DNA of 64,000 nucleotides, taken from positions 90,923 through 154,922 of the forward strand of contig CAZVGS010000002.1 in NCBI GenBank assembly GCA_964627245.1. The letters are read 5' to 3'. Numbering within the stretch: the stretch's first letter is position 1; every line of letters starts with the position of its first letter. Made by a program: the position numbers and the translations under genes. Below, piece by piece: positions 4,328-24,348 of this stretch. Under the pieces are notes generated by a model. That model worked only from the letters and a program-made list of their open reading frames with translations, had not been told where the DNA came from and ran no database searches. The stretch is from an uncultured Gammaproteobacteria bacterium. GTDB lineage: Bacteria > Patescibacteriota > Microgenomatia > Levybacterales > GWA1-39-11.

Positions 4328-4381
4328 TTACATACTGTAACGATCCTAAAAGGTACGGCCGCCCAACACTTCTGAAATCTT

Positions 4382-5716
4382 ATGGACGAACTCTGGAAAA
4401 AAACACTTGAAGAAATTGAACTTGAGGTTTCAAAACCGCGCTTTGTTACTTTTTTCAAGCAAACCCAACTGGTATCAATAGAAGGGGATGTCGCGACAAT
4501 CTCTTCGCCTAACTATATGGCAAGCGCTTACATTGAGAAAAATTATTATTCTCTTGTTAAAAGAGCTTTGGACAAATATTCTGAAAAGAACCTAAGCCTT
4601 GTCTTTGTAACAAATTCAAAAGAAACACTAACCACTGACGGAGGACCTCTTTTTTCAAGCTCTGTAATAAAAAAAGCCGAGAAAAAACCCCTTGCCCGAA
4701 TACGGGAGGACTTCACCTTTGACACTTTCGCAGTTTCTGACAGCAATCAGCTGGCTTATACAGCGGCTATGGCTGTTGCGGAGGACCCCGGAGGAAAATA
4801 CAACCCCTTATTTCTATATGGAACTGTGGGGGTTGGAAAAACACATCTTATGAATTCCATAGCCAACATTGTTCACCAAAAAAAGGGAGGGGCGAGTATT
4901 ATCTACCTGACAACGGAGGAATTCACCAATGAAGTTGTCGAGGCCATACAATTCAAAACAACACAGCAATTAAGAAGAAAGTTCAGAAACGCAGACCTGT
5001 TACTGCTTGACGATATTCAATTTCTAACGGGTAAGGAAAAAGTTCAAGAAGAGCTTTTTCACACATTTAATGCTCTCATCGACAGAAAGGGTCAGGTCAT
5101 CTTCTCCTCAGACCGTCCCCCTCATGAATTAAGAAAAATCGAAGCTAGGCTGGCGTCCAGATTTGAGGGCGGCCTTACGGTTGATATTGAACCTCCCGAT
5201 TTTGAATTAAGAACAGCAATCCTCTTGATAAAAAGCGCAAAGTTCGGTTTTTCATTAACGCCTGACCTTGCAAAAATTATTGCACAAAAAGTTTCTGACT
5301 CAAGAGGGCTTGAGGGATTTTTACTAAAACTCTCATCTCTCTTATCAACCTCCAATTCCCCGGTCGTTACCGAAGAACTTATAAAGAAGTGCTTAGGCAA
5401 AAGCAGACAGGAAAAAACGGTTGTTCATCCAGACGATTTAATTAATGCTGTTTGTGAATTTTATGACATAAAGCAAACCCAGCTTAAGGGATCCAAGAGA
5501 GATGCTTCCCTGGTCAGGCCCAGACACATATGCATGTTTTTATTGAAAGAGCAGGGACTTACCTTTGTTGAAATAGGAAACCTTCTTGGAGGAAGAGATC
5601 ACACAACGGTTATGCACGGTGTGGAAAAGATTTCCAAGATGAGCCCAAAGACACCCTTTCTAAATGAGGAAATCATGTCGATAAAAAAGAGCATTACCAA
5701 CACTTATCTACAATGA
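4382..5716 (+). CDS. dnaA: chromosomal replication initiator protein DnaA
   Basis: 444 aa; AAA+ Walker A GTVGVGKTHL, Walker B LLLLDDIQFL, C-terminal DnaA DNA-binding domain (signature region around VRPRHICMFLLKE); followed by dnaN. Confidence 0.9.
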   Translation: MDELWKKTLEEIELEVSKPRFVTFFKQTQLVSIEGDVATISSPNYMASAYIEKNYYSLVKRALDKYSEKNLSLVFVTNSKETLTTDGGPLFSSSVIKKAEKKPLARIREDFTFDTFAVSDSNQLAYTAAMAVAEDPGGKYNPLFLYGTVGVGKTHLMNSIANIVHQKKGGASIIYLTTEEFTNEVVEAIQFKTTQQLRRKFRNADLLLLDDIQFLTGKEKVQEELFHTFNALIDRKGQVIFSSDRPPHELRKIEARLASRFEGGLTVDIEPPDFELRTAILLIKSAKFGFSLTPDLAKIIAQKVSDSRGLEGFLLKLSSLLSTSNSPVVTEELIKKCLGKSRQEKTVVHPDDLINAVCEFYDIKQTQLKGSKRDASLVRPRHICMFLLKEQGLTFVEIGNLLGGRDHTTVMHGVEKISKMSPKTPFLNEEIMSIKKSITNTYLQ

Positions 5717-5844: not shown

Positions 5845-6945
5845 ATGAAAGTATCTTTTCTTCCAGAAAACATAATTAAATATTTACCACTTATCAACAA
5901 GGCTCTACCATCCCACACACAGGTTCCAATCCTTTCAAACGTTTTATTAAAAGCTACAAAAGAAGGGTTGACCCTTGAAGCAACAGATCTTGAAATCGGG
6001 GTAAGGATTAAAATACCGTCAAAAATAGAAGAAGAAGGTTCAATAACGGTTCCCGGTAAAGAGTTCCTTGAAACAATAAACTCCCTTCCCAAGGAAAAAA
6101 TTTTATTAGAAAAAGACAAAGACTTACTTGTTTTAACCTGCATGGATAGCCGGGCTGTTTTTAATACAATTTCAGGTGAGGAATTCCCCCAACTATTAAA
6201 GGAAAAAGGAGACTTGGTTTTTAGGATGAAGAGAGAACAATTTGTCAGCGTTTTTTCAAACATTACGTTTTCAGTCTCACAGGAGGAATCAAGACCCCAG
6301 TTAACAGGGGTCTTTATTGAGGTTGTTGATGACGGGGTTAATTTTGTATCAACGGACGGTTACAGGATGACGATGAAGAAAATAAAAGAAAAAGAAGTAA
6401 AGAGAAAAGAAGGATTAATAGTTTCCGTCAAGCTTATAAATGAAGTAATTTCTCTTAAAGGAAGTGAGGATATAAGTCTTTTTGTAAATGAGAAAGAAAG
6501 CCAGGTGATTTTTGAAGTGGGAGACGTGCTTGTTATTGGAAGAATGATAGGAGGGGTCTTTCCTGATTATTTGAATGTATTACCAAAAAAATCCTTAACA
6601 AATATAGTTTTTGATAGGGAGGGGTTGCTTCAGAATGTCAAGCTAGCATCGGTTTTTGCAAAAGATAGTAGTAATATCGTAACGTTAAAAATAAAAAATG
6701 GAATTGTTTCTGTTGAAACAAAAACCCAAGGCATTGGAAGCGGGGAGGCAAGCGTCGATTGTGATCAAAAAGGGGAAGATGTACAAATAACTTTTAACAT
6801 CAAGTATCTGTCAGATGTTTTAAAAGCGGCTAATGGTAAAACGATAAAAATGGGTCTCAACTCATCTTCAGAACCCGCTTTGTTTGAAGACAAGGAATTT
6901 TTACACGTTATTATGCCCATTCAGGTGGAAGGGTTGGGTGGGTAG
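5845..6945 (+). CDS. dnaN: DNA polymerase III beta sliding clamp DnaN
   Basis: 366 aa; N-terminal MKVSFLPENIIKYLPLINKALPSH... typical of DnaN, three-domain length, immediately downstream of dnaA. Confidence 0.85.
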   Translation: MKVSFLPENIIKYLPLINKALPSHTQVPILSNVLLKATKEGLTLEATDLEIGVRIKIPSKIEEEGSITVPGKEFLETINSLPKEKILLEKDKDLLVLTCMDSRAVFNTISGEEFPQLLKEKGDLVFRMKREQFVSVFSNITFSVSQEESRPQLTGVFIEVVDDGVNFVSTDGYRMTMKKIKEKEVKRKEGLIVSVKLINEVISLKGSEDISLFVNEKESQVIFEVGDVLVIGRMIGGVFPDYLNVLPKKSLTNIVFDREGLLQNVKLASVFAKDSSNIVTLKIKNGIVSVETKTQGIGSGEASVDCDQKGEDVQITFNIKYLSDVLKAANGKTIKMGLNSSSEPALFEDKEFLHVIMPIQVEGLGG

Positions 6946-9579: not shown

Positions 9580-11718
9580 CTATTTTGGCTGTTGGCCTTG
9601 AAGCGGGAAAGACGATCCTTGTTGCGGGGAAGAAGGGATGGGTGGTTGATAGGTTGGGGTTTGGAAAGGAGGTTGGGTTGATTGAATGGTGGGGGGTACT
9701 AACGGCAGCGATTGTCCGGTCAGAGGAGTGGAGAGTGGGGTTGGGGTGTTTGTGAACTGTTGCCCCGGCGGATTTTGGGTACCCGGAAACTGTGGCGCGG
9801 ATTGGAGGGGTGGCGGCTGTTGCTGTTGTGGGGGGGTGCTTGGGGGAGGTGCTTCAAGCTCTCTTTCCATGGTGTCTTGGGGCCTTGAAGTAACAAGGTC
9901 GTACTCGAATTGAGATGCAACAAACTGAGCCGTTACGTGATTTTGACCTGCAAAAAGAAGACCTTCTCCAACCTGTGCCGTTAGGAGATATTGCTTTTCT
10001 CCCTCAGAAAGATTTAAGGTTTTTGCAAGCGCCTCTACTTCTGATGAGCCTTGCTTCAGTAATATCTGCATCGAGGAGCTTGAAAGTATAGCTTTTCCAT
10101 AGTCTGATGACAGAAAGTCTTCGATGTCTTGAGTAAGAGTAGTGAGTCCCAAATAATACTTACGGCAACGCTTTGCAATTCCCTGCAGAAACGAAGCCGA
10201 GTCAGGGTATTTCATCATGTACCAGGCCTCATCAACGATAAGTAGTCTCTTTTTCATTTTTGTTCTAACCCTTGTCCATATAAAATCCAAAATAACATGC
10301 ATGGCAATAGGTCTTAACACATCCTCAAGCTGTTTAAGTGAAAAAACAGTAAGCTGGTTTTTCACGTCATAATTGGTCTGGTGATTGAAAAGACCGGAAA
10401 ACCCTCCCTTGACGTATTTTTCAAGTCTAAATGCAAGCTCTTTTGCGTCCGCCTCCTCCATGTTGAGAAGGGTTTTGTAAAGATCTTCAAGAATTGGGGG
10501 TTCGTTTTTGTATGTTGAGGGATCCGGGGTAATCCCCTTTTGCTTGTAGGCAAGAACAATTGAGCGGTCCAGTATTGCTTCCTGCGTTGCGTTCATTTCT
10601 CCCATCATGGTTTTAAACAACCCATGTACGCTTAAAATTTTTGTTCCTAGCTGTGCCTCCGATTGGTCATCTGGCATAAGGGCGAAGGGATTTATCTTTA
10701 TCTCCGAATCTTTGGAAAAAGCAACATACTCTCCACCTAATGAGTCGCAAAGCACCTTGTACTCATCTTCGGGATCTATTATCATAACCTCGGCATCAAA
10801 CATCATTTGTCTCAAAACCTCAAGCTTAACAAGAAATGACTTACCGGAGCCGGATTTCCCAAAAACAACAGAATTGGCATTCTCAAACGAGAATCTGTCA
10901 ACCACAACAAGCGAATTATTTAGAGTATTTATACCGTAGAGTATACCGTTGGGATGCGATATTTCGTATGAGGTAAAGGGAAAAGTGGAAGCGACTGAGG
11001 TTGTATCCATGTTGCGCGTTGAGAAAAGCTTGTCAATTCCCGTTGGCAGAGTGGTCTTAAATCCGTCTTCCATCTGAAGGGTTGCGGGTTTTATCACCAA
11101 TAGATTGGATGACAAAAGAGACATGAGCTCTTTTGAGCGGAGATTGAGGTCTTCAAGGTCGCCTGAGGCAAGAGTTACGTAAAGCCCGAATTGATAAAAG
11201 CGCTCAAGACCTCTGGCTAACTCTTCCCGAAGCGCAATTGCATCCTCCAAAGACGCTCTTATTTTAGGATCCGGCTCAAGACCTTGCTGGGTGTCTGACT
11301 CGATTGTTGCTTCCATCTCGGCAATTTTACGCCTCAAGTTGGAAAGTACATCTTTTGACTCAACCGGGTATATGAACATAGAGATATTCATCGTTTCTTT
11401 GTAGTCGATAAGTATCGAAAGCCAGTTGGGTGAAACCTGACGGGGGTAATCAACGACAAAAAAAGTGCGGTAATATGTGTCGCCGACTCTTATGTTTTTG
11501 AAATCTACCTCAACCGACGAGGGAGCAATGATATCAACTATTCCTACAGATCCCTGCTTTAGAGCCTCTGTGCTTTTTGCATTTTGGGCAGGAGTGGGCG
11601 CTGCGGGAGGTGCTTGGACCGGCTGCTGTTGGGCATTTTGCACGGGTTGACCCTGAGCCTGTTGCGCTGTATTTGATTGGGGAGGATTTGGTTGTTCTTG
11701 TTTCTTTTTTCCAAACAT
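9580..11718 (-). CDS. virB4: type IV secretion ATPase VirB4 (Gram-positive PrgJ/TraE/TcpF-type) with low-complexity Pro/Gln-rich N- and C-terminal tails
   Basis: 712 aa; Walker A GKSGSGKSF, Walker B LLIVDEAWYMM; N-terminal core IAPSSVEVDFKNIRVGDTYYRTFFVVDYPRQVSPNWLS matches the Gram-positive VirB4 N-domain; roughly 50 aa N-terminal and 90 aa C-terminal Q/P-rich tails. Confidence 0.85.
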   Translation of the reverse strand: MFGKKKQEQPNPPQSNTAQQAQGQPVQNAQQQPVQAPPAAPTPAQNAKSTEALKQGSVGIVDIIAPSSVEVDFKNIRVGDTYYRTFFVVDYPRQVSPNWLSILIDYKETMNISMFIYPVESKDVLSNLRRKIAEMEATIESDTQQGLEPDPKIRASLEDAIALREELARGLERFYQFGLYVTLASGDLEDLNLRSKELMSLLSSNLLVIKPATLQMEDGFKTTLPTGIDKLFSTRNMDTTSVASTFPFTSYEISHPNGILYGINTLNNSLVVVDRFSFENANSVVFGKSGSGKSFLVKLEVLRQMMFDAEVMIIDPEDEYKVLCDSLGGEYVAFSKDSEIKINPFALMPDDQSEAQLGTKILSVHGLFKTMMGEMNATQEAILDRSIVLAYKQKGITPDPSTYKNEPPILEDLYKTLLNMEEADAKELAFRLEKYVKGGFSGLFNHQTNYDVKNQLTVFSLKQLEDVLRPIAMHVILDFIWTRVRTKMKKRLLIVDEAWYMMKYPDSASFLQGIAKRCRKYYLGLTTLTQDIEDFLSSDYGKAILSSSSMQILLKQGSSEVEALAKTLNLSEGEKQYLLTAQVGEGLLFAGQNHVTAQFVASQFEYDLVTSRPQDTMERELEAPPPSTPPQQQQPPPLQSAPQFPGTQNPPGQQFTNTPTPLSTPLTGQSLPLVPPTIQSTQPPFQTPTYQPPIPSSPQQGSSFPLQGQQPK

Positions 11719-11719
11719 A

Positions 11720-12373
11720 TCAAACGATTACATTTTTAATATCTTGTGAATCAAAATCAACGGTAATTGAGTCGTTGTTGAGAATTTCATAATAAAGTTT
11801 TATCAACTCTTCATGCGACAATGGTCTTGCCATAAGACCCATTCTTTCAACCTGAGCCTGAATAACAGCCCTTTTTGAAATCAAAGCGTTTTTTGCCTGA
11901 TCCGCGAAGGGTCCGCTCGTGCCTTGCTTGGATTTTGCTTGTTGTGGCGCACTGCCCGGAACGACGCTTGCCTCAAGGTAAGAGTACGGAACCACTATGT
12001 ATATCTTTTTATCCAAAAGACCTTCGTTTTTTACCAGCTCATCAATGAATTGCCTGTACATTGTTAAATGCTCTTTGAGTTTTTGGTTTTGAAGTGATTC
12101 GATTTTTTGATCCAAAAGTTTTAGGTAGTTACCCATATCAACTCTTTTTGAGACAATTAAAATTTGTATAGGAAATGAAAGTGAATTTATGAGAGACATA
12201 TATCCGTAAATTCTTGCGTTCTGCTCATCTGCTGATAAGAGAAAAAAATTAACGGATGAGATCTCAAGAACACAGCAGGCATTTTTTCCCTTAAAGAGTA
12301 CTATGTCACCAACTATGTCGACAATTTCGGTAAAGTCTTGTGTTGTTGAGTGGATTTTGTCTTTTTTTGACAT
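11720..12373 (-). CDS. hypothetical protein in T4SS block
   Basis: 217 aa, soluble, no recognisable motif; translationally coupled between the PrgI-like gene and virB4. Confidence 0.35.
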   Translation of the reverse strand: MSKKDKIHSTTQDFTEIVDIVGDIVLFKGKNACCVLEISSVNFFLLSADEQNARIYGYMSLINSLSFPIQILIVSKRVDMGNYLKLLDQKIESLQNQKLKEHLTMYRQFIDELVKNEGLLDKKIYIVVPYSYLEASVVPGSAPQQAKSKQGTSGPFADQAKNALISKRAVIQAQVERMGLMARPLSHEELIKLYYEILNNDSITVDFDSQDIKNVIV

Positions 12374-12376
12374 ATA

Positions 12377-13687
12377 TTATGCTTGCTGTGCGGTTTGGGG
12401 TGCCTGGTTCTCAAAAAGCTCGCGTCTTAGTCTTTCCCGCTGGTCAACAGAAACAATCTCGAGGGGCTCGAATAAATTTCCATCAAGTGCTATGTGTATT
12501 TGTTCAAATTCGTGTTGTTTTCTCGGGTCCTCCAGAAGAACATTGTATTCGCCGTCGGGAAGCGGGGTTGCGGCCGCAAATTGCCCAAGCGCATTAGTCT
12601 TAAAAGCTCTTACGGGAATTCCCTGAAGATCCATTATCTCAACCAATATATTCGGAAGTATTCTCCCTCTTGGGTCTTTGATTATACCCAAAACAATATT
12701 TGGGGCATCTGGAAGACTTGGAAATCCACCTTTCAGAGAGGTTTCTTTCGAAAGCGTTGTAACATTTTGAGATTCATTGGGAATTACTGTTGGGATCTTT
12801 GCTTCATTTCCTTGAACGACCGTAAGATCCTTAGGCGCTTGGGGGGGCGCTTGTTGCTGGGTCTGGATGGGAGGCTGTTGGGGGATCAGGTTTTCCATTT
12901 TGATCTCCTCAGGCTTTCCCCCTTCAAATACGGGCTTTGAATCTGTTTCCTGGACAGCCGGCGAAGGTTTTGCTATCGGGGTCTCCTTCGGAAGATTGGC
13001 CGGCGAGACAACTTTTATTGCATCTGAAATGCTTGTTTGAGGAATAGCAGACGGCTGTGCTATTTGGGTAGAACGCTGAGTTTCATTGGGGGGGGAGTCT
13101 ACTTTTTGGACTTGAGGGCTCGCCGAATGCTGGGATTCATTTAAGTAGTTATTTATATTTAAGAGCATTGCCTGCTCGCGCTCGTCGGGCCGGTAGTTCT
13201 TTTTAAGCGCCCCGTATAGAAGAGCTCTTTTTGAGGAGAGGGCACTATTATTTTCGGTTTTTTTCACCTCTATTTTTTGGGATGCTGTGCTTTGAGGTGA
13301 GAAAAATTCGCCGATAATTACCTCGGCACCCCTTTTTTTGTATATGTATTGGTTTTCGGCAGGAAGTGCCTTCAGGAAATTCTTTGCCATTACATCCATC
13401 GGACGCCCTTCAATAGGAACAAAAGCAAGCATTACGCCAAAGCTTCCAAAAAGTATGCTCAAAGGAATTTTTATGAAAGGTGTCATCGGCAAGATAAAAC
13501 AAACTGCGGCAACTATTCCGCCTCCTAAAATATAAAGAAATTGCTTGACCGTAACGCTTCCAATAAGCTTGAATTTAAATCCTGTAACGTCCTGCGGAAT
13601 AGGGTGGTTTTCCATAATAATAACAAACACACCAAGTTGATGCGCCGTTGTTAAGCGTATAACGTGAAAATTTTGTCTGCAAGACAA
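12377..13687 (-). CDS. PrgI/VirB3-like two-TM protein with long Pro/Gln-rich linker and C-terminal beta-sandwich-like domain
   Basis: N-terminus DVTGFKFKLIGSVTVKQFLYILGGGIVAAVCFIL...PIEGRPMDVMAKNFLKAL matches the PrgI-family two-helix layout that precedes VirB4 in Gram-positive systems; a more likely start is Met at 13615 (MENHPIP...); C-terminal 110 aa (GRILPNILVEIMDLQGIPV...) resembles a carboxypeptidase-regulatory/prealbumin-like fold. Confidence 0.5.
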   Translation of the reverse strand: MSCRQNFHVIRLTTAHQLGVFVIIMENHPIPQDVTGFKFKLIGSVTVKQFLYILGGGIVAAVCFILPMTPFIKIPLSILFGSFGVMLAFVPIEGRPMDVMAKNFLKALPAENQYIYKKRGAEVIIGEFFSPQSTASQKIEVKKTENNSALSSKRALLYGALKKNYRPDEREQAMLLNINNYLNESQHSASPQVQKVDSPPNETQRSTQIAQPSAIPQTSISDAIKVVSPANLPKETPIAKPSPAVQETDSKPVFEGGKPEEIKMENLIPQQPPIQTQQQAPPQAPKDLTVVQGNEAKIPTVIPNESQNVTTLSKETSLKGGFPSLPDAPNIVLGIIKDPRGRILPNILVEIMDLQGIPVRAFKTNALGQFAAATPLPDGEYNVLLEDPRKQHEFEQIHIALDGNLFEPLEIVSVDQRERLRRELFENQAPQTAQQA

Positions 13688-16161: not shown

Positions 16162-16458
16162 CTAGAGGGTGGGGTTTTGGATTTGACTGACTCCTGTGAG
16201 CTGGGAGATAAATCCGACGATAAAAAATGAAAGAAAGATAACGATAAGTCCAACTATCGTATACGTTGCTGTTTTTTTGGCCATGGCAACTTTTTCAGGA
16301 TCTCCTTTTGAAGTTATATACATTATGCCTGCATAGATAAAGAGAATAAGGGCAACAAGACCCGAAAAGGCAAGAGCGGCATTAACGATATTTCTTACAA
16401 TAATTGGAATACAGGCAAGAGTTGCGACGCCGTTTTCAAGACATTGGTCCCAAGGCAT
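16162..16458 (-). CDS. VirB2/TrbC-like pilin paralog 1
   Basis: 98 aa; two hydrophobic helices separated by the SxGDxxKVxxAxxxI motif (YITSKGDPEKVAMAKKTATYTIVGLIV) shared by all four tandem genes; Cys pair in the N-terminal region. Confidence 0.6.
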   Translation of the reverse strand: MPWDQCLENGVATLACIPIIVRNIVNAALAFSGLVALILFIYAGIMYITSKGDPEKVAMAKKTATYTIVGLIVIFLSFFIVGFISQLTGVSQIQNPTL

Positions 16459-16463
16459 AAAAT

Positions 16464-16874
16464 TTATTCACCGCTGAGGGTAGGAAGCTGAAGGTCAAAT
16501 AGGCTAAGTCCGAATAGCTGAAGAACGAGGTTGAGTATGAAAAATGCCAAGAATACTACGATAAGGCCAATTACGGCAGCAATTATTTGATTTCTTGCAG
16601 CTTCAACTCCTGCTTTGTCACCACCAGACGTTATCCATTTGATGCCTCCCCACACGAGGAAAAGAAGGGCAACGAGTACCGCAATAACAAATGCTATTGT
16701 TACGATAAAACCTACCAATTGACCTATGCTTCTATCGGATCCTGCGCATGCTTGCTTCAGAATTCCCGTCGCACCTTCGCAAGGATTGAGGTCTTTGGTG
16801 TCTGCAGCGTATACAGAGACAGCTGTTGCAAGATATACGGGGGCAGTTCCGAGGACAGCTAATACTTTTTTCAT
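16464..16874 (-). CDS. VirB2/TrbC-like pilin paralog 2 (with signal peptide)
   Basis: 136 aa; signal peptide ending ...SVYAADT; Cys pair (NPCEGATGILKQAC); WITSGGDKAGVEAARNQIIAAVIGLIVVFLAFFI motif. Confidence 0.6.
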   Translation of the reverse strand: MKKVLAVLGTAPVYLATAVSVYAADTKDLNPCEGATGILKQACAGSDRSIGQLVGFIVTIAFVIAVLVALLFLVWGGIKWITSGGDKAGVEAARNQIIAAVIGLIVVFLAFFILNLVLQLFGLSLFDLQLPTLSGE

Positions 16875-16918
16875 AGATAATTAATTGTTAACAGGTTTGT
16901 TATTCCTTGTCAAGCATT

Positions 16919-17260
16919 CTATATGGTAAGGTTAAAAAAGTTAACCCCAAGCGCCGAGCCTACAAAATTGATAATAAAAAAGGAGAAAAAGACGACCAAA
17001 AGCCCTATTATCGCGTAAATAATGGTGCGTCTGGCGCTTTCAACTTTTGTTTTGTCCCCCTCAGACATTATGTAATTTGCGCCTCCATATATTAGAAAAA
17101 GCAGAGCGATAATAATGCTTGCGATAAGAAGCCAGGTGATAACAAGTCCTATTATTCTTCCTCCATCTCCCTCAAGTCCTCCTGTCGGAACCCCGGAGGG
17201 CGCAGCTATTTCAATGGGTTCGCCGTCAGTGCCCGGAATGGTTAATGATAAAAGTTTCAT
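16919..17260 (-). CDS. VirB2/TrbC-like pilin paralog 3
   Basis: 113 aa; YIMSEGDKTKVESARRTIIYAIIGLLVVFFSFFI motif; Gly-rich N-terminal region. Confidence 0.55.
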   Translation of the reverse strand: MKLLSLTIPGTDGEPIEIAAPSGVPTGGLEGDGGRIIGLVITWLLIASIIIALLFLIYGGANYIMSEGDKTKVESARRTIIYAIIGLLVVFFSFFIINFVGSALGVNFFNLTI

Positions 17261-17262
17261 AA

Positions 17263-17688
17263 TTAATTAAAGCCCGGAATTTTTATAATGTCTCCTGCTA
17301 TTACTGATAGTATCACAAGCGAGAATACTATAAAAAGAAGCCCGACAATTGCCGATGTTAAGGTCTCGCGTGCTCCCTGGACAATTTCTTTATTGGCTCT
17401 TGAAACGAGGAGCTTGTATCCTGAAAAAATAATAATTATTAGTGCTGCAAATCCTCCCAACGAAAGTGCAATTGAGAATATTTTGGTAACAACCACAACC
17501 GGGCTTGAAACATCAACTATTCCTATTGCTGTATCGCACTTATTATTCGGACAAGGTTCCTTAGATGTTGCTGAACCTCCTCCCCCCGGGGGAGGATTGC
17601 TGGCAGTGTCGGCTAGGGTTGGAAAAGTAATAAACATAAGAAGGGTTATTGCTAAAAGCAACGGCAGGTTTATTAAAAATTTTTTCAT
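17263..17688 (-). CDS. VirB2/TrbC-like pilin paralog 4 (with signal peptide)
   Basis: 141 aa; signal peptide; Cys pair (EPCPNNKCD); LLVSRANKEIVQGARETLTSAIVGLLFIVFSLVI motif. Confidence 0.55.
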   Translation of the reverse strand: MKKFLINLPLLLAITLLMFITFPTLADTASNPPPGGGGSATSKEPCPNNKCDTAIGIVDVSSPVVVVTKIFSIALSLGGFAALIIIIFSGYKLLVSRANKEIVQGARETLTSAIVGLLFIVFSLVILSVIAGDIIKIPGFN

Positions 17689-17725
17689 ATATATATGGTA
17701 CTTTTAATAACGCTCCAATTCAACA

Positions 17726-19057
17726 TCACGCCAATTTGTAGCCGGTACCTTTTAAGGTCTGGATGTAATGGGGATTTGCAGGATCTATTTCCACCTTTTT
17801 TCTTAGCCTGTAAAATATCTGATCCAATGCTTGGTCGGTGACCCCCTCCTGGGATTTTTGCTCACTCCATGTGGCAGATATGAGTTCGTCTTTTGTGCAG
17901 ATCTTCCCCCTATTGAGGATTAAGTACTTTAATAGTCTGAATTCCAGCGGAGAAAGTCTGTTTGAGACCTGAATATCTCCTATATATATTTCATTTTTTG
18001 CTTCATCGTAAGAGAGTGATTCGGTGCTTTTGACAGGAATATTATTGATGAATGATTCGAAAAGGGGTATGGTAATCCCATTCTCATTGTATAGAAAGGT
18101 ATTTACTAAATAAGGAAATTCTTCCTTTGTTTTTTCAAAGGAAACGTTTTCTTTTAGTGCAAGCTGTTCTGCAGGAAGAAGCGCATGCCAAATCTCATCA
18201 AGGGCTTTTTGTATGGTGGATCTTTTTTTAAGGAATTCTTCGATATTCTCAACAGGCTCATTTTCAGTTGTAACTGCCTCGAAAGATAATTTTGAAAGTC
18301 TTGAATGTCCACCTGTCATCTCCAATATCTTTCTTTTTTGCTCTGGATCAAGCTTTTTTCTAGCGGCTTTTTCGATATATGAGGCTCGAAAATCAAGCCA
18401 TACATCATCACTGAAAGACACATAGACAACATTTTCTGCTATAAGATCATGAAAATCAGTGAGTAGTGAGGAGTCTAAGAGTTCTTCAAGAGGTCTTACT
18501 AGTGAAAATATACACCCAAATCTATATTTTGCACGGTTTCTTAGTGAGTTGAGATTATTGAAAAATTGAGGGGTAATGCTTGGTATTATGCATTCAAATT
18601 TGTCAAAAAGTAAATTTATGGTTAACTTTTTTTCAATGGATAGGTAGTCGATGCTTTTTTTCAGGCTTTGAAAGAGCATAAGCTCATCTCCACCGGATAG
18701 CCCTTCTTTCAAAAAGTCGTTAATTTTTTGAGAGTCTTTCATCATCCGTCTTTCGCCAAGCGAAAAAGAGAGGGAAATTAGGATAAATTTTAATATTTCA
18801 AAAAGAGACTTGTCATTTACTTCGGAGCAATCCAGGTAGACAAAGTGCAGTAATTTTTCGTAGTCGCCATAATTGTTGTATCTCGCATCTCTATTATAGG
18901 AAAGAAGGCGAAGAACATTGCTTTTTCCGCACCCCGGGATACCTACGAGTTGAGTTGAAAGGCCTTTTTCAAGGTACGGAATTATCAATTTGAACTCGCG
19001 TTCACGTGTTTTTGGAGGGTAGAGCGAATCAAAATATTTTAACGGCTGTAAATCCAT
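17726..19057 (-). CDS. P-loop NTPase fused to a C-terminal OmpR/PhoB-type winged-helix DNA-binding domain (putative regulator of the T4SS-like locus)
   Basis: 443 aa; Walker A GIPGCGKSN near the N-terminus; C-terminal 80 aa (LSPLEFRLLKYLILNRGKICTKDELISATWSE...YRLRKKVEIDPANPHYIQTLKGTGYKLA) fits the trans_reg_C pattern. Confidence 0.6.
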   Translation of the reverse strand: MDLQPLKYFDSLYPPKTREREFKLIIPYLEKGLSTQLVGIPGCGKSNVLRLLSYNRDARYNNYGDYEKLLHFVYLDCSEVNDKSLFEILKFILISLSFSLGERRMMKDSQKINDFLKEGLSGGDELMLFQSLKKSIDYLSIEKKLTINLLFDKFECIIPSITPQFFNNLNSLRNRAKYRFGCIFSLVRPLEELLDSSLLTDFHDLIAENVVYVSFSDDVWLDFRASYIEKAARKKLDPEQKRKILEMTGGHSRLSKLSFEAVTTENEPVENIEEFLKKRSTIQKALDEIWHALLPAEQLALKENVSFEKTKEEFPYLVNTFLYNENGITIPLFESFINNIPVKSTESLSYDEAKNEIYIGDIQVSNRLSPLEFRLLKYLILNRGKICTKDELISATWSEQKSQEGVTDQALDQIFYRLRKKVEIDPANPHYIQTLKGTGYKLA

Positions 19058-19097
19058 AATCTAATGATACAACGAAAATAAGCTTGTTGTCAGGTCC

Positions 19098-22013
19098 TTG
19101 AGAGGAACATATCAAGTTGACGAAGTACACTTCCCATACAATGAGCGCATGGAAAACGAATTGACACATTACCAAGCCTTGGCCAATAATGTAGTTAGGA
19201 CTACTACGGGTTTTGATAGAAATCCGCGGTCAAAACTTATGGAAGAAAACGGCGAAATCAATAGTCTCGAGAAAGAAGTTGTTAGTGAGGAAGAGCTTAA
19301 GAAAAGAGCAGTGCGTCAGCTGTCCGAAAGACAAAGAAAAGTAGAAGAAGCGTGGCAGAAAGTATTAAAAGAAAAGCAGGCTAGAGGAGAAAAAGTAACG
19401 CAAGAGGACGTGGAGATAGCAAGAAGGGCTAGTGAAAAAGGTGAAATGCCTGTAAATGTCGGCGGCGCAAGCGACGGATTTGAGGGTTTTAATGCAGAGA
19501 AATATAAACAGACCAAGTTCGGTCAATTCGCGCAAGAGTTAAAAGTAGCAGGGGAAAAAGGGGAGGTTACTAATGAGTTATTGCAGGATATAGGAAATAG
19601 GGCAAGGGCAGCTGTTGTAAGTGGGCAGGATCAATTTGTTTACGACCAATTTGCTGGAGAAATAAATGAGATAGTCACAAGATTGGCAGCTCAAGAGCAA
19701 AGTAATCAAGAACGAGCCGGTCAAGAGCAGAGTAGTCAGGGGGATGTTAAGACAAGAACGATTGAAGAATTGCTGCAAAGCAGGGTTAATGCTTCTCTTG
19801 AAAAGAAAGAAGGAAGAAGCAGTAATCCTCGTTCGATTCAAGAAGTTGCGTTAAGTATTATAAATGACGAGGGACCTGATAGGTGGGGTCCAAACGGCAC
19901 TTATCCTCTCGTAGAGTTGATCTACGATGAAAATGGAGAGCCAAAATACAAAACTAATTATAAAGGTGAAAAAACACTAGATCCTCAAGTAAAGCTTAAT
20001 GAAAAAAATTTTGTGAGATGGTTTCGGGAGCGTATGATGTATCACCACGCAAGTAATTCAAGAGATGAAAGCTTGCAGCTCGGAAACCTTGTGGGTATAA
20101 CCAGTGAATTTGGAAGTACGATAAACATTTTTTCAATGGATAAAGATCGTGCTCAGTATTTCCTTGACGAATCAACCGGGACTGTTATGGATAAACTAGC
20201 CAATCAATTAAAAATGGAGTTATGGCTTTTTGGGAACATGAGAAATTACGACCTTTTGTACCAAAAATATATGGGGAGCGACTCCGACCTTCCAAAATTC
20301 TTGTCCCAGCTTCATGAGAAAGAGGAAATCACCCAGCCTCAGAGTCTTGAGACTATCATGACATTGCCTAAAGAATTTGGTGAAGATGGTGACACGTCAG
20401 TCGGAGACGGCATAAGGAAGGCATACGAAATATACTATTATGCGTCTGACTATAACATGCTCAAAAAAGTTTTGGGAGAAAATTCCATATTTTTCAAAAG
20501 AGAAGGATTTGAGAATGCATTAAGAATTATTGAAGGGTTGAATCCAACCGATGCCATACCTCAGTCATCACAAAAAATAATAGACTCGGTATTTGACGGA
20601 AAGAATGTTAATCCAGAAAAATTTATAAAACTCATGAATCCATTCAATGAAAAGAACAAGCCTGAGTTTGCGAAAAAGCTTATCCGCGAAATGGTAAGGC
20701 AGGTTATTTCCAGAAAGTATGACTTAGAATATGGCTTGACGGAAATGAGGGTTGTGAATGGGGTATTTAATAGTGAGGATGTTAAGGAGAGAGATCTGGT
20801 CAGAAAGGATTTAGAATACGCTGAAGCTTTTGCTTGGGTTTTAACTCATTGGACTGGGGCAGCAGCAAGAAATGACACAGGCGCAATCGGTTTTGACGCC
20901 TTCACAAAGACTATGAAATTAAGAGAATACAGAAAAGGCCAGTCCGGGTTAAATAGGGCGGGGTCTTTTGGGAATGAATATGATCTTGGAGTATTTAAGG
21001 GCTTAGCGGTCGATTTTTTTAACGGAATAACTGTTGAGAAAAAGCTTGAGGATAAAGGTAACAATTACACTCCCTTTGAGATCTTTAGGATAATGAGTGA
21101 TATAGAGGACTCATCTCTTCCCGAGGACGAGAAAAAAAGGCAAAAGACCCAGTGGGCGAAGAGGCTTAACTTTGAGCAATACATACAAAGATCATATTCC
21201 GGGGATCACATCAACCGTGCTTTTGAAATATTCCACGCCACGCTTGGGGCCGAGGAGATGAGGCTTGAGGAGATAGTCAAGTGGGACCCTTTTAGGGGAA
21301 TAATATTGGATAGGGGTAAATTTGAAGAGCAGGTTAAGGAGAAATTTCTAAAGCCCATAAGATATGCATTCAGAACATACGCCCAGCTTGATATGGGCAA
21401 GATGCAGAGACTTCAAGTCGGTGGCTTTGGTTCCAATGACCTCCCAATTTATAAGGATGTAACCACGGCAGAAACCATATTTGGACCTGAGGTGTTAAAA
21501 GATATAAGGCCAATGGCACAACAAAGATATGAAGGTTGGAATAGTGAGGATAAAGGTAAATTCGATGAAAGGCTAAAGCAACGTGGAGTAGATTTTAACT
21601 CGCTTTCTGCGGATGAGAAAAAACAGCAAATATGGCAGGACTATTTATCATCTCAAGACGGTAAAGATATTCTTTGGAAAAGGGCGGCCATGGCAAAGAT
21701 TGCGGCCCACATAAAATCTCACAGAGAATTTGGTAACGGGTATACACAATTTACAGCGGGTATGGTAGAAACGTTTTACCAGGCTCTCGAATCAATAAAG
21801 GCAATGGATATTAATGAAGGAGAGGATGATACAGAGCTTTCCTACGCCCAAAGCTTTCTGTCCAAGGAGGATATTGAATGGATAAGAAAAAGAAGCGGAA
21901 CAACTCACAAGAGGCTATTTATGGTTGACTTCTTAGGCAAGGGAGTCGGAACGGGGGTTGCAAAAGGCATGTGGGAAGGAGCAGGGGTTATTATCAAAGA
22001 TATATTCAAGTAG
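19098..22013 (+). CDS. large hypothetical soluble protein (971 aa) of the T4SS-like block
   Basis: long ORF beginning with TTG at 19098 (first ATG at 19149, MENELTHYQ...); acidic, no TM, no recognisable catalytic motif (no clear relaxase HUH triad or P-loop). Confidence 0.45.
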   Translation: MRGTYQVDEVHFPYNERMENELTHYQALANNVVRTTTGFDRNPRSKLMEENGEINSLEKEVVSEEELKKRAVRQLSERQRKVEEAWQKVLKEKQARGEKVTQEDVEIARRASEKGEMPVNVGGASDGFEGFNAEKYKQTKFGQFAQELKVAGEKGEVTNELLQDIGNRARAAVVSGQDQFVYDQFAGEINEIVTRLAAQEQSNQERAGQEQSSQGDVKTRTIEELLQSRVNASLEKKEGRSSNPRSIQEVALSIINDEGPDRWGPNGTYPLVELIYDENGEPKYKTNYKGEKTLDPQVKLNEKNFVRWFRERMMYHHASNSRDESLQLGNLVGITSEFGSTINIFSMDKDRAQYFLDESTGTVMDKLANQLKMELWLFGNMRNYDLLYQKYMGSDSDLPKFLSQLHEKEEITQPQSLETIMTLPKEFGEDGDTSVGDGIRKAYEIYYYASDYNMLKKVLGENSIFFKREGFENALRIIEGLNPTDAIPQSSQKIIDSVFDGKNVNPEKFIKLMNPFNEKNKPEFAKKLIREMVRQVISRKYDLEYGLTEMRVVNGVFNSEDVKERDLVRKDLEYAEAFAWVLTHWTGAAARNDTGAIGFDAFTKTMKLREYRKGQSGLNRAGSFGNEYDLGVFKGLAVDFFNGITVEKKLEDKGNNYTPFEIFRIMSDIEDSSLPEDEKKRQKTQWAKRLNFEQYIQRSYSGDHINRAFEIFHATLGAEEMRLEEIVKWDPFRGIILDRGKFEEQVKEKFLKPIRYAFRTYAQLDMGKMQRLQVGGFGSNDLPIYKDVTTAETIFGPEVLKDIRPMAQQRYEGWNSEDKGKFDERLKQRGVDFNSLSADEKKQQIWQDYLSSQDGKDILWKRAAMAKIAAHIKSHREFGNGYTQFTAGMVETFYQALESIKAMDINEGEDDTELSYAQSFLSKEDIEWIRKRSGTTHKRLFMVDFLGKGVGTGVAKGMWEGAGVIIKDIFK

Positions 22014-22014
22014 G

Positions 22015-24264
22015 CTAAGCAGATCCTTCCGGCTTTTCGGGCTCATCAGGTGCTGTGTCCGGTTGGGGTGCTTCCGGAGCCGGGCTATCTGCTGCTGGGT
22101 GCTCGGGTTCTGTCTCACCGCTTCTTCCTATTTCGCTTCCGTCAGCTTCTCCGCCTGCCATACGCGCTCTAGATCTTTCCATGACTTCGCGTTTTGTTTT
22201 TTCAGCAAGTGTTTCTCCCTCAATAGATGGAGAGGTGGCTCCCGAAGTGCCTCCGGGCCTTGTAGCACTAGCAATTGTAGATTTTTTCTTGCCACCAAAA
22301 ATTGAAGGTAGCCAGCCAACTTTATGCTCTGACTTCTCCTTTTCACTCATTCCCCTCATGCTTAATCCTTCATTTGTATGCGTTTGTTTAATTCCTCCGC
22401 CCGTAAGGGCTCTGCCAATCCCTGCAAATTTTCTCTGAGCCCATAGGGAGCCTTCCTTTGGAGCGCCAAGTGCGTCTTTACCGAATAATTCGTGTTTTAT
22501 CCCAGATATTGGCTTGCCCAAGGCTCCTTGCCCAGTACCAAGAGCACGTCCTATGGAGCTTGCAAATTTGAAGTCTTGAGCCTTTAGAGTCTCTTTTACT
22601 ATATTTGCAACCTCAGGTGTCAGAAGCAATATTCCCATGCCTAAAATTGCCGCAAACCCGGCCATGCTATTGCTGAAGTCACCGACAAGAGGTGGTATAA
22701 AAACATTTCCGTTGCTTTGTCCGACACTGTCAATTAAGACCTTACCTAAAAGAAGCATCATATAAGTTGCGGGAAAGACTGCTAAATTTGCAACTACGCT
22801 TCGAAACCAAGACCCGACCCCCATCTGTACCCCCGGGAGTATGCCAAATGCTATAAAGAAAGGAGCAAAAATTAGAAAAAGGAAAAGGTAAATATAGGCT
22901 TTTATCAGCTGAAACCATAACCGGAACATTGCAGTAAAAATAGCAATAAGTATGATAAAAAAGGCAATAAGGTTTGGTAAGAGTTCTCTTAATAAAGTTT
23001 CTGTAAGTGCAGCAACTGCTCCTCCAGCTATTGTTCCAGCTGGCCAGCCCATTAAAAAGCCAGGTATTACTTGAAATCCTCCCCCTCCCCCTATTCCCAG
23101 GAAAGATCCTTGTATTGAAAACCCCCCACCAGGAGTATTTGATACTAGAGTTCCAACTTGTATTCCAGCAACAAAACCTGCTCCTATACTCGCTGCATGT
23201 ATTAAATAATTCACAAAACTCTGATTTGCAAAACTTCCCACAGTACCTTTCGCTATATTGCCTAGACCTCCAATCAGCCCTCCTATGAGCGGGATCTTAC
23301 TTAGCAATGAACCAAGTTCACTTAGACCGGGGATATGTTTTATTATACTGCCAAATATATCACCAATACCTTTAATTTCGGGTAGGCCAGGAATACTTGG
23401 GCCGCCTCCGGGGCCAAGACCTATAGCATCTTTAATAGAACCGACAACGGTTCCTGTTACGTGAGTTGCTATTCCGGCAATCCCTCCGGCATTAGTGCCG
23501 CCTGCCAATTGATTGGCTGCCGTAAAAGGATTTGCTCCCTGAATATCCGATGGTTTGAGCCCGCCGACATCGGCCCCGGGAATACTTGCCATAATTCCGT
23601 AAATAAAATAAGTGCTAATTCTCATAAGATCAATCATAAATCCGACAATTGCGTAGGAAAGAGTAATAAAGACAAGGCCGATTATTATCTTTGGAATTGC
23701 ATTTTGAATTGTCATAACACTTCTAGGGTCAATTTTTACACGAAACATTATTCCAACTCCGATAACGACAAATATAAGAACAAAAAATAAATACATTATA
23801 TTTCTAAAAGCTTCCCAGATAGGTAAAAATGGAGTAAGTCCGCGGAACCCATCCCCGGTCCCGAATTGCGCATTGGCAGTCTTTGTGAGGCCAAAATTTG
23901 AGGCAACGTGCGCAATGTATTGACTTCCTGATGCAGGAAAATCATAAGTAGCTGCAATTCCCCTGTTCATAAATCCCAAAGCGCCTCCGCTTTCAACAAA
24001 CCCGATTTTCCCATCATTCCCGCTTGCTCCCAGGCATTTTCCTTCAGGGTTAATGGGGTTAATTCCCGAAAGCTGGCAGGAGATGGCAGACATCAGCTCA
24101 ATAAATACAACCTGTGAATAGGTACTTAAATTTTGCGGTACATTTTGCTCAATATTTAAGGGGAGGGATTGATTTGGGGGGGGAGTTAAATTTTGGGCAA
24201 AGGATGAGTTAGTAGAAAGTGCTAGGAAAAATACAGCAAAGATAACACCAAATATTTTTTTCAT
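22015..24264 (-). CDS. VirB6/TrbL-like polytopic membrane protein with disordered Pro/Glu-rich C-terminus
   Basis: 749 aa; signal peptide, then at least six hydrophobic helices separated by Gly-rich loops, hydrophilic C-terminal tail; position next to other T4SS genes; family assignment by topology only. Confidence 0.45.
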   Translation of the reverse strand: MKKIFGVIFAVFFLALSTNSSFAQNLTPPPNQSLPLNIEQNVPQNLSTYSQVVFIELMSAISCQLSGINPINPEGKCLGASGNDGKIGFVESGGALGFMNRGIAATYDFPASGSQYIAHVASNFGLTKTANAQFGTGDGFRGLTPFLPIWEAFRNIMYLFFVLIFVVIGVGIMFRVKIDPRSVMTIQNAIPKIIIGLVFITLSYAIVGFMIDLMRISTYFIYGIMASIPGADVGGLKPSDIQGANPFTAANQLAGGTNAGGIAGIATHVTGTVVGSIKDAIGLGPGGGPSIPGLPEIKGIGDIFGSIIKHIPGLSELGSLLSKIPLIGGLIGGLGNIAKGTVGSFANQSFVNYLIHAASIGAGFVAGIQVGTLVSNTPGGGFSIQGSFLGIGGGGGFQVIPGFLMGWPAGTIAGGAVAALTETLLRELLPNLIAFFIILIAIFTAMFRLWFQLIKAYIYLFLFLIFAPFFIAFGILPGVQMGVGSWFRSVVANLAVFPATYMMLLLGKVLIDSVGQSNGNVFIPPLVGDFSNSMAGFAAILGMGILLLTPEVANIVKETLKAQDFKFASSIGRALGTGQGALGKPISGIKHELFGKDALGAPKEGSLWAQRKFAGIGRALTGGGIKQTHTNEGLSMRGMSEKEKSEHKVGWLPSIFGGKKKSTIASATRPGGTSGATSPSIEGETLAEKTKREVMERSRARMAGGEADGSEIGRSGETEPEHPAADSPAPEAPQPDTAPDEPEKPEGSA

Positions 24265-24348
24265 GGCAGTGCTTTTAGTATTGCTAAATTAGCGTGAAAA
24301 ATCAACTGCACCAAAGTTGTAAAAGATAGAATTTGAAGCAGAATATAT

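Follow-up and report, generated by a model that had tools for sequence, protein, structure and literature searches.

The DNA analysed here, a stretch of 64,000 nt from contig CAZVGS010000002.1 (assembly GCA_964627245.1, positions 90,923-154,922; hereafter the window, whose own coordinates are used below), carries a gene at 17726-19057 that joins an N-terminal P-loop module to a C-terminal OmpR/PhoB-type winged helix-turn-helix (wHTH) and lies in a locus resembling a type IV secretion system (T4SS). We think it fairly probable that the product is a one-component transcription factor dedicated to the T4SS-like locus of Levybacteria, its wHTH acting on a pair of direct repeats and a STAND/ORC-like, non-hydrolysing module serving as input. 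The open reading frame (ORF) is a genuine, well-conserved gene, with full-length homologues in at least 129 species genomes (454 protein clusters). The scan for the regulator locus took one genome per species and gave 129 loci, nearly all from Levybacteria/Microgenomates, of which 80 were retrieved.

Domain architecture and predicted fold

The gene and the domains of its product are:

17726-19057 (-): regulator gene, 443 amino acids (aa), ATG start, P-loop module plus C-terminal OmpR/PhoB wHTH
18413-19015 (-): P-loop alpha/beta core, residues ~15-215 (AlphaFold secondary structure, Foldseek)
18263-18406 (-): helical lid, residues ~218-265 (AlphaFold secondary structure)
18038-18244 (-): small helical domain and beta hairpin, residues ~272-340 (secondary structure from the AlphaFold model)
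17729-18025 (-): OmpR/PhoB-type winged helix, Trans_reg_C (Pfam, PDB and Foldseek matches)

The initial annotation, made from the sequence alone, proposed an N-terminal NTPase followed by an OmpR-type wHTH, with no receiver domain. The domain search bears out the C-terminal assignment: residues 367-442 match Pfam PF00486 (Trans_reg_C) with 69.3 bits against a cutoff of 26.2 (E 3e-19), and the same domain is found in all 32 aligned homologues. The C-terminus also matches the solved DNA-binding domains of RegX3, KdpE and PhoB in the PDB (E 2e-10), and Foldseek places it with the effector domains of KdpE, PhoB and CovR (template-modelling score, TM, of 0.70-0.78 on the target; root-mean-square deviation 2.3-3.0). 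The recognition-helix region, GVTDQALDQIFYRLRKK, is nearly invariant across the T4SS-linked clade; its pattern (GVTDQALDQ..RLRKK) is kept inside the clade and is different in relatives outside it. The receiver domain is indeed absent: the Pfam scan gave no Response_reg match, and NCBIfam response-regulator models cover only residues ~345-442, with scores far under cutoff.

What, then, is the N-terminal part? In Pfam the first 340 residues reach 16.4 bits for AAA_22 and 14.0 bits for AAA_35, both below the cutoffs of 27, and because these matches are weak the NTPase call, as far as sequence goes, rests on the P-loop motif. The AlphaFold model, computed from the alignment of 32 homologues, is more informative (mean predicted local distance difference test score, pLDDT, 89.6; predicted TM-score, pTM, 0.85). 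It has strands at residues 35-38, 70-76, 146-152, 180-186 and 210-212, with the P-loop after the first of these and a helix at 45-54. The first Foldseek match in the PDB is the Walker-type ATPase PABY2304 (2qen; E 2e-6, TM 0.45/0.54), and the next are Cdc6/Orc1, ORC subunits including ORC4, and SSO1545 (2fna), with E values from 2e-6 to 1e-3; the top entries (2qen, 1fnn, 2v1u, 2qby and 2fna) all have probability 1.00. As modelled, the N-terminus folds as an AAA+/STAND-like P-loop module, in which residues ~272-340 would be the winged-helix-like third domain of a NOD-type module. The NTPase proposal is thus upheld by the predicted fold and by profile links (E 1e-20 to 1e-36) to distant relatives, some of which exceed the Pfam thresholds for AAA_22, AAA_35 or nSTAND1, the direct Pfam scores of the protein itself being sub-threshold.

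An ABC-ATPase identity was considered and rejected: residues 12-52 match 2ghi (E 0.0036), a local P-loop resemblance that the modelled fold contradicts. The segment up to and through the P-loop (18932-19024, YP..TR..E....L.F..KG.S.QVVG.PG.GKS) does resemble the N-terminus of ABC-transporter ATPases; its predicted fold is AAA+/STAND-like. PADLOC defence models gave the regulator a single 16-bit, P-loop-local match, to mad8 (E 0.0013).

The further suggestion of a STAND-like signal integrator goes too far. No superstructure-forming repeats (TPR, WD40 or LRR) were matched and the protein stops at residue 443, right after the wHTH; since it has no repeat sensor domain it is not a classical STAND integrator, and its Walker motifs belong to a degenerate set (see below). 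The regulator lies above no cutoff for the STAND Pfam families. In the clade of 32, AAA_16 is matched by 10 members and nSTAND1 by one, with every score under cutoff, and STAND Pfam membership is reached only transitively, via relatives such as P0240 and P0164.

Comparison with known systems gives partial likenesses. MalT and the LAL proteins are one-component activators with an N-terminal STAND NTPase and a C-terminal DNA-binding domain, and they oligomerise on repeated sites. The regulator shares with them an NTPase input and a C-terminal DNA-binding output but lacks the LuxR/GerE HTH, the large TPR-like sensor, the active ATP site and the length of ~900 aa; in Pfam it has neither GerE nor TPR matches. 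AfsR and the large SARPs likewise join an OmpR-type wHTH to a STAND (NB-ARC) module in a single chain, and the sites they bind are direct repeats close to promoters. Their order is an N-terminal wHTH-BTAD, then NB-ARC and TPR, whereas the regulator has its wHTH at the C-terminus, no BTAD match and no TPR. It is therefore not a SARP, and the reversed domain order pointed out in the initial annotation is real. That said, the order NTPase, then DNA-binding domain, is in itself nothing out of the ordinary, being common to MalT/LAL, DnaA, Orc1/Cdc6 and the more than 1,000 related clusters described below. With PhoB, KdpE and RegX3 the regulator shares a homologous DNA-binding domain and, probably, a target of direct repeats phased at 11 bp and placed at the -35 or upstream of it, but it has no receiver domain and no phospho-acceptor, and dimerisation must therefore come from the P-loop module. 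PABY2304/SSO1545 (Pfam ATPase_2) and Orc1/Cdc6 are the best structural matches to that module (Foldseek E 2e-6 to 9e-4; TM 0.40-0.54 for 2qen and 2fna against the combined nucleotide-binding domain (NBD), lid and winged helix); they differ in having functional Walker motifs and no OmpR wHTH, and neither has a significant sequence match to the regulator. Despite the functional resemblance, then, the regulator belongs neither to MalT/LAL nor to the PhoB-type response regulators.

The T4SS-like locus and the candidate operator

The features of the locus are:

9580-11718 (-): VirB4, core T4SS gene
11720-12373 (-): TraC-like/TrsD-like gene, core T4SS gene
12377-13687 (-): PrgI-family gene, core T4SS gene
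16162-17688 (-): array of four T4SS_pilin genes that follows the regulator gene after a 37-bp gap
19149-22013 (+): divergent gene of ~954 aa (ORF971 with corrected start), probable direct target
22015-24264 (-): Gly-rich multi-pass membrane protein of 749 aa, conserved in the locus in nearly all relatives

Two unknown ORFs lie between the PrgI-family gene and the pilin array, on the same strand, and no terminator is predicted in the 37-bp gap between the regulator gene and the array. The window holds the VirB4, PrgI and TraC-like genes and the pilin array that define an MPF-FATA-like T4SS, and by gene content its locus is the Patescibacteria system of that type described in PMC12102498. The 749 aa protein, for which neither Pfam nor NCBIfam has a match, may be an analogue of VirB6, reported as scarce in Microgenomatia (PMC12102498). 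According to work cited in the same survey, the T4SS-like system is essential for epibiotic growth in Saccharibacteria, the only Patescibacteria with genetics. The survey names no regulator, and we found no paper on regulators of Patescibacteria T4SS.

The association of the regulator with this locus is tight. Fifty-nine loci are informative, having 2.5 kb or more of flank on each side, and every one of them has a pilin homologue no further than 2.5 kb from the regulator (downstream and co-directional in 51, upstream and divergent in eight). In 30 of 37 loci VirB4 is at most 10 kb away. In eight loci (L044, L054, L061, L062, L068, L073, L076 and L081) the regulator gene alone is inverted in place, so that it is transcribed away from the pilin array and in the same direction as the ~1000 aa gene. 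Of the relatives at about 30% identity, one directly adjoins VirB4-TraC-PrgI and another is divergent from a five-pilin array. The T4SS link is thus seen in three gene arrangements and down to 30% identity, in keeping with the proposal in the initial annotation of a regulator dedicated to this locus.

The array itself varies in size, with four genes in the window and five in L088, and the first pilin gene (17263-17688) encodes 141 aa in the window versus 466-492 aa in relatives (L001 11476-12954, L002 11374-12774). At the other end of the T4SS-like cluster, about 2.6 kb away, are dnaA (4382-5716) and dnaN (5845-6945), so that the locus adjoins replication-origin genes, as has been reported for Microgenomatia T4SS-like loci (PMC12102498).

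The gene had been placed between the pilin genes and an ORF of 971 aa. This is correct apart from the start of the latter: as listed, the ORF begins at TTG 19098, but ATG 19149 is the likelier start (954 aa) because the N-terminus M-[ED]-x-E-L-T-H and the -10 are conserved. The divergent intergenic region is therefore 19058-19148 (91 bp), and the candidate operator falls partly inside the mis-called 5' extension (19098-19149). Pfam, NCBIfam, PDB sequence search and PADLOC gave nothing on the function of the ~1000 aa gene. The elements between the two divergent genes are:

19064-19093 (-): promoter-like CTGACA-18-TATCAT of the regulator gene; its -35 is the second repeat and its -10 ends 6 nt before the ATG
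19087-19104 (-): candidate operator CTCTCAA-ggac-CTGACAA, a direct repeat with 11-bp period
19109-19117 (-): ACTTGATAT box, conserved; contains the -35-like TTGATA of the ancestral regulator promoter and, for the divergent ORF971 promoter, occupies the -35 position
19137-19142 (+): TACAAT, -10 of the large gene, conserved, 6 nt before ATG 19149

The initial annotation suggested searching intergenic regions of the locus for direct repeats. They are found in the divergent promoter region (19087-19104) and not in 17689-17725 or 24265-24348, where the matrix maxima in the window are below zero; a few other genomes have a match near the ORF749/DUF5667 intergenic region, too few for a claim. Comparison of the upstream regions of about 40 loci revealed a shared pattern, CTYACAR-N4-CTYACAR (11-bp period), with a fixed layout. 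From the start of the large gene outward there are 6 nt, a TACAAT-like -10, 19 nt, the ACTTGATAT box, 3-4 nt, CTYACAR, 4 nt and CTYACAR, followed by the regulator ATG. In most relatives the second repeat contains the TACAAT -10 of the regulator gene. In the subclade of the window an extra ~20 bp brings a new -10 (TATCAT), and the second repeat acts as the -35 (CTGACA). The first repeat starts 3-4 nt past the -35 and is not explained by the promoter, and the 11-bp period persists even where the hexamers are displaced.

Two kinds of search speak to the specificity of the pair. A loose regular expression for it has 39 matches in 2.7 Mb, of which 22 are inside the 100 nt upstream of the regulator gene; with only 17 outside that interval, the pair is not a general promoter feature. 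These 22 sites, all from other genomes, were made into a matrix, and among the 127,958 positions of the window it scores 19085-19106 (-) highest (14.7, next best 11.8). For 38 of 63 held-out loci the best locus-wide match is no more than 70 nt from the ATG of a divergent ORF that is 500 aa or longer, and the distance from site to large gene is 42-45 nt in 45 of 59 cases. The pair is thus tied geometrically to the promoter of the ~1000 aa gene, not to the pilin genes. Behind the site comes the regulator in 33 loci, a four-helix-bundle gene and then the regulator in 16, and a gene of neither kind in 10. These 10 include inverted layouts in which the whole module still precedes the large gene (L073), and the repeat module likewise stays before the ~1000 aa gene despite inversion of the regulator in L044, L068 and L054. 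Even L086, the relative of 30% identity next to VirB4, has AACTTGAT...CTAACAGgtagCTAACAG, with the repeat module present as CTAACAGgtagCTAACAG; this is the top match of its locus (18.3). PhoB-type domains bind 11-bp direct repeats head-to-tail, and 1gxp is among the fold matches. The repeat pair is probably the operator of the regulator and, judged by its position, two promoters are the probable direct targets, that of the ~1000 aa gene and that of the regulator gene itself.

The inserted four-helix-bundle gene is small (~120-160 aa, 23S rRNA intervening-sequence type, PF05635-like) and lies between promoter/operator and regulator at L059 9605-9976 and in 15 other loci; in L088 a gene of this kind is just downstream of the regulator gene. 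In the inverted loci L054, L068 and L081 the regulator has a different promoter, GTTTGCAA ... TACAAT. The second-best matrix match in the window, ACCTTTTAGGATCGTTACAGTA (4333-4354, -; score 11.8), lies 28 nt upstream of dnaA and could be chance; three of the related loci extend as far as dnaA.

The ACTTGATAT box was itself tried as the main operator, being the top enriched 8-9-mer upstream of the gene. In most relatives, however, its TTGATA lies 18 nt before the TACAAT -10, a spacing that makes it largely a -35 element, and a similar -35, CTTGATAT, at another promoter of the window also counted against it. The box may still be relevant to the divergent promoter of the large gene, which has a good -10 and no recognisable -35. 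It is of note that -10-like hexamers at 19064-19069 (-), 19137-19142 (+) and 17695-17700 (-) end 6 nt before the ATGs of the regulator, the ~1000 aa gene and the first pilin gene, respectively. No Shine-Dalgarno sequence lies between these hexamers and the ATGs, and relatives have the same geometry; both features suggest leaderless or near-leaderless mRNAs.

The degenerate ATP site and the wider family

The motifs of the putative ATP site, with statistics below taken from 113 close homologues of the regulator, are:

18917-18943 (-): Walker A, GIPGCGKSN, residues 39-47, intact in the window protein
18593-18613 (-): Walker B-like LLFDKFE, residues 149-155
18485-18520 (-): strand 4 with invariant Arg188, FGCIFSLVRPLE, STAND-type sensor-1 Arg position by alignment only
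18305-18316 (-): TGGH in the lid, counterpart of GGHPGL (GxP) in distant relatives, Pro lost

The sensor-1 Arg and the GxP are established STAND motifs. In the clade, Walker A reads G-[LI]-P-G-x-G-[K/R]-[S/N]-N, with Lys in 70% and Arg in 30% of sequences at the first variable basic position and Ser in 73% and Asn in 26% at the next. The residue after the invariant D152 is Lys or Arg, giving D[KR]F[DE] in nearly all homologues, and DE or DD occurs at this place in none of the 113. The GxP position, assigned by alignment and not from a ligand-bound structure, is GGHSRL or GGHGKL, without Pro. Set side by side, the motifs of distant relatives are GKS, hhhhDEFD and GGHPGL, and their counterparts in the T4SS-linked clade are G[KR][SN], D[RKH]F[DE] and GGH[GAS]KL. 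G42, G44, D152 and R188 are invariant or nearly so in the homologue alignments.

From these substitutions, hydrolysis has probably been lost or become very slow in the T4SS-linked clade, while binding of phosphate or nucleotide is possibly retained: the Gly-rich loop, a basic Walker A residue, the Mg-binding Asp and the sensor-1 Arg all remain, so a nucleotide or other phosphate ligand is probably bound without turnover. As the window protein still has GKS, the claim of decay concerns the clade and is not proof for this protein. In a sister subclade (P0170, P0183, P0201, P0206, P0217 and others) the Walker A Lys is replaced by Ile (GMKRVGISNF) and Walker B reads [LIV]RFDRL; to judge from these motifs its ATP site appears to be lost even more completely.

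Where does the module come from? A profile of residues 1-340 only, run against 1.84 billion representative proteins, found 1157 clusters (50% identity) at E<=1e-3 and 565 at E<=1e-10, mostly of 430-480 aa. Wherever a sampled distant member carries Trans_reg_C, the domain is C-terminal to the module (9/9), and these nine match nSTAND1, AAA_16, AAA_22 or AAA_35, some over curated cutoffs. The same two-part architecture, at 450-485 aa, is present in five of 10 sampled relatives, and hhalign of the clade profile against one of these gave a probability of 99.8% (E 8e-28, 320 columns). The NTPase-then-OmpR-wHTH architecture is thus widespread, with more than 1,000 clusters of direct relatives and the wHTH C-terminal in those sampled; we found no publication on it. 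Uncharacterised STAND-like NTPase + Trans_reg_C proteins (P0164, P0169, P0175 and P0245) are among the direct homologues across residues 1-340, and they differ from the regulator in their canonical GKS, hhhhDEFD and GGHPGL motifs and in the recognition helix; some of this type have the surroundings of ternary conflict systems (TCAD9, TIR, Ser/Thr kinase). On the alignments, the regulator appears to be a derived member of this undescribed family. In the sole neighbourhood inspected, the relative aligned by hhalign has histidine kinases and a receiver-TCAD9 protein around it and no T4SS.

Some members are multidomain proteins. P0203 (1784 aa) has the NTPase module with Trans_reg_C, TCAD9 and TIR; P0264 (781 aa) has an N-terminal Ser/Thr kinase, then the module, then Trans_reg_C; and P0240 (642 aa) has kinase and module, with Trans_reg_C not detected. 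By domain content these three appear to link the family to 'ternary' conflict-type systems. No dedicated Pfam model exists for the N-terminal module of the family, which numbers more than 1,100 clusters and offers a natural series from canonical to decayed ATP sites.

Proposed mechanism and alternatives

We propose that the OmpR/PhoB wHTH binds the repeat pair head-to-tail as a dimer or oligomer held together by the NBD-lid-winged-helix module. That module, inherited from ATPase-competent relatives, would replace the phosphorylatable receiver as input, would bind nucleotide or another phosphate ligand without turnover, and would serve as a binding-controlled or constitutive oligomerisation unit that places at least two wHTH domains on phased repeats. 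Relative to the promoter of the ~1000 aa gene the repeats lie at about -40 to -60, a placement suited to activation, and binding there would activate. The same repeats run into the promoter of the regulator gene as well (at the -35 in the window, at the spacer and -10 in most relatives), where binding would occlude, and this overlap would give autoregulation. The pilin and T4SS genes would be reached by read-through from the regulator promoter, across the terminator-free 37-bp gap, or indirectly. What the analysis shows are the domains and fold, the decay of the motifs, the synteny, and the conserved, fixed placement of the repeats; that the protein binds these repeats, in which direction it regulates, and that it takes a ligand and oligomerises are predictions of this scheme.

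Several observations weigh against it, some of which are better accommodated by other explanations. The window protein keeps GKS and has an acid three positions past D152, and slow hydrolysis is possible. Such features are what would be expected of an active STAND/AAA+ switch that runs an on/off cycle of ATP binding and hydrolysis, like MalT or AfsR, with the acid at +3 of Walker B as catalytic base and motif variants tolerated. D152 is invariant and about 85% of homologues have Asp or Glu at +3; constraint on Arg188 and on the glycines of the P-loop is strong, and the relatives are fully canonical. But GK[ST] is broken in about half of the clade members (K to R or S to N), no clade member has an acid beside the Walker B Asp, the proline of GxP is gone, and the Lys-to-Ile change in the sister subclade shows that the family tolerates loss of the site. 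We regard an active switch as unlikely. More doubtful again, and put forward as a conjecture, is a specific version of the non-hydrolysing scheme in which the decayed module senses nucleotide and makes expression of the T4SS-like apparatus for host interaction depend on the ATP/ADP status of the cell, or on that of another nucleotide. Oligomerisation on the phased repeats would then require nucleotide, and would at one and the same time shut off the regulator's own promoter and switch on the ~1000 aa gene. Were this so, nucleotide sensing could report host attachment in an organism that scavenges host nucleotides, and the circuit would be the first defined for a Patescibacteria T4SS, with a receiver domain functionally replaced by a pseudo-ATPase.

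The remaining difficulties concern the link to the T4SS. The order RNR-NrdR-DUF5667-... is syntenic across Levybacteria, so that the neighbourhood is largely inherited gene order inside one phylum. The second repeat coincides with promoter hexamers (the -10 TACAAT in many relatives, the -35 CTGACA in the window), and because of this overlap part of its conservation may be promoter conservation. In the window the first half-site, CTCTCAA, is a weak match, with the site scoring 14.7 against 20-28 in many relatives. There is no matrix site before the pilin genes or the VirB4 operon in the window, and control of the T4SS genes proper is therefore indirect at best. Could the association be one of gene order only, the protein regulating something else or itself and the repeats being promoter elements or the site of another factor? 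The association outlasts inversion of the gene in place (eight loci), and it persists beside VirB4, beside the five-pilin array and after insertion of a small gene between promoter and regulator. No promoter element would be expected where the first half-site lies, the 11-bp phasing outlives the moved hexamers, and the rarity of the pair beyond the upstream interval also argues against ordinary promoter elements. Pure inherited synteny is unlikely, and we give this explanation as a whole little credence.

A DNA-loading or architectural role of the Orc1/Cdc6 or DnaA kind, for example in T4SS DNA processing or at the replication origin 13 kb away, appears very improbable. The best fold matches include Cdc6/Orc1 and ORC subunits, DnaA and Orc1 likewise place a DNA-binding domain after an AAA+ module, and dnaA and dnaN are in the window, with the second-best matrix match just upstream of the former. 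Yet the TM-scores for ORC are low (0.29-0.41) and the similarity is of a generic AAA+ kind; as output the protein has a genuine OmpR/PhoB wHTH, and the candidate site has a fixed promoter geometry. The dnaA-proximal match scores only 11.8, and Patescibacteria T4SS loci mostly lack relaxases (PMC12102498). A dedicated one-component regulator remains the explanation we prefer.

The T4SS-like system is widespread in the Patescibacteria radiation, and the regulator is a concrete candidate for its controller: one protein and one 18-bp candidate site, both conserved in more than 50 uncultured species. The advance is bounded, in that the protein recombines well-known domains, the clade is confined to one candidate phylum and the probable target gene has no assigned function. 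Finally, many genome records with a Levybacteria-type locus (among L004-L083) are titled 'uncultured Gammaproteobacteria bacterium', and one 'Bacteriovorax sp.'; these are apparently wrong labels on third-party assemblies of metagenome-assembled genomes.

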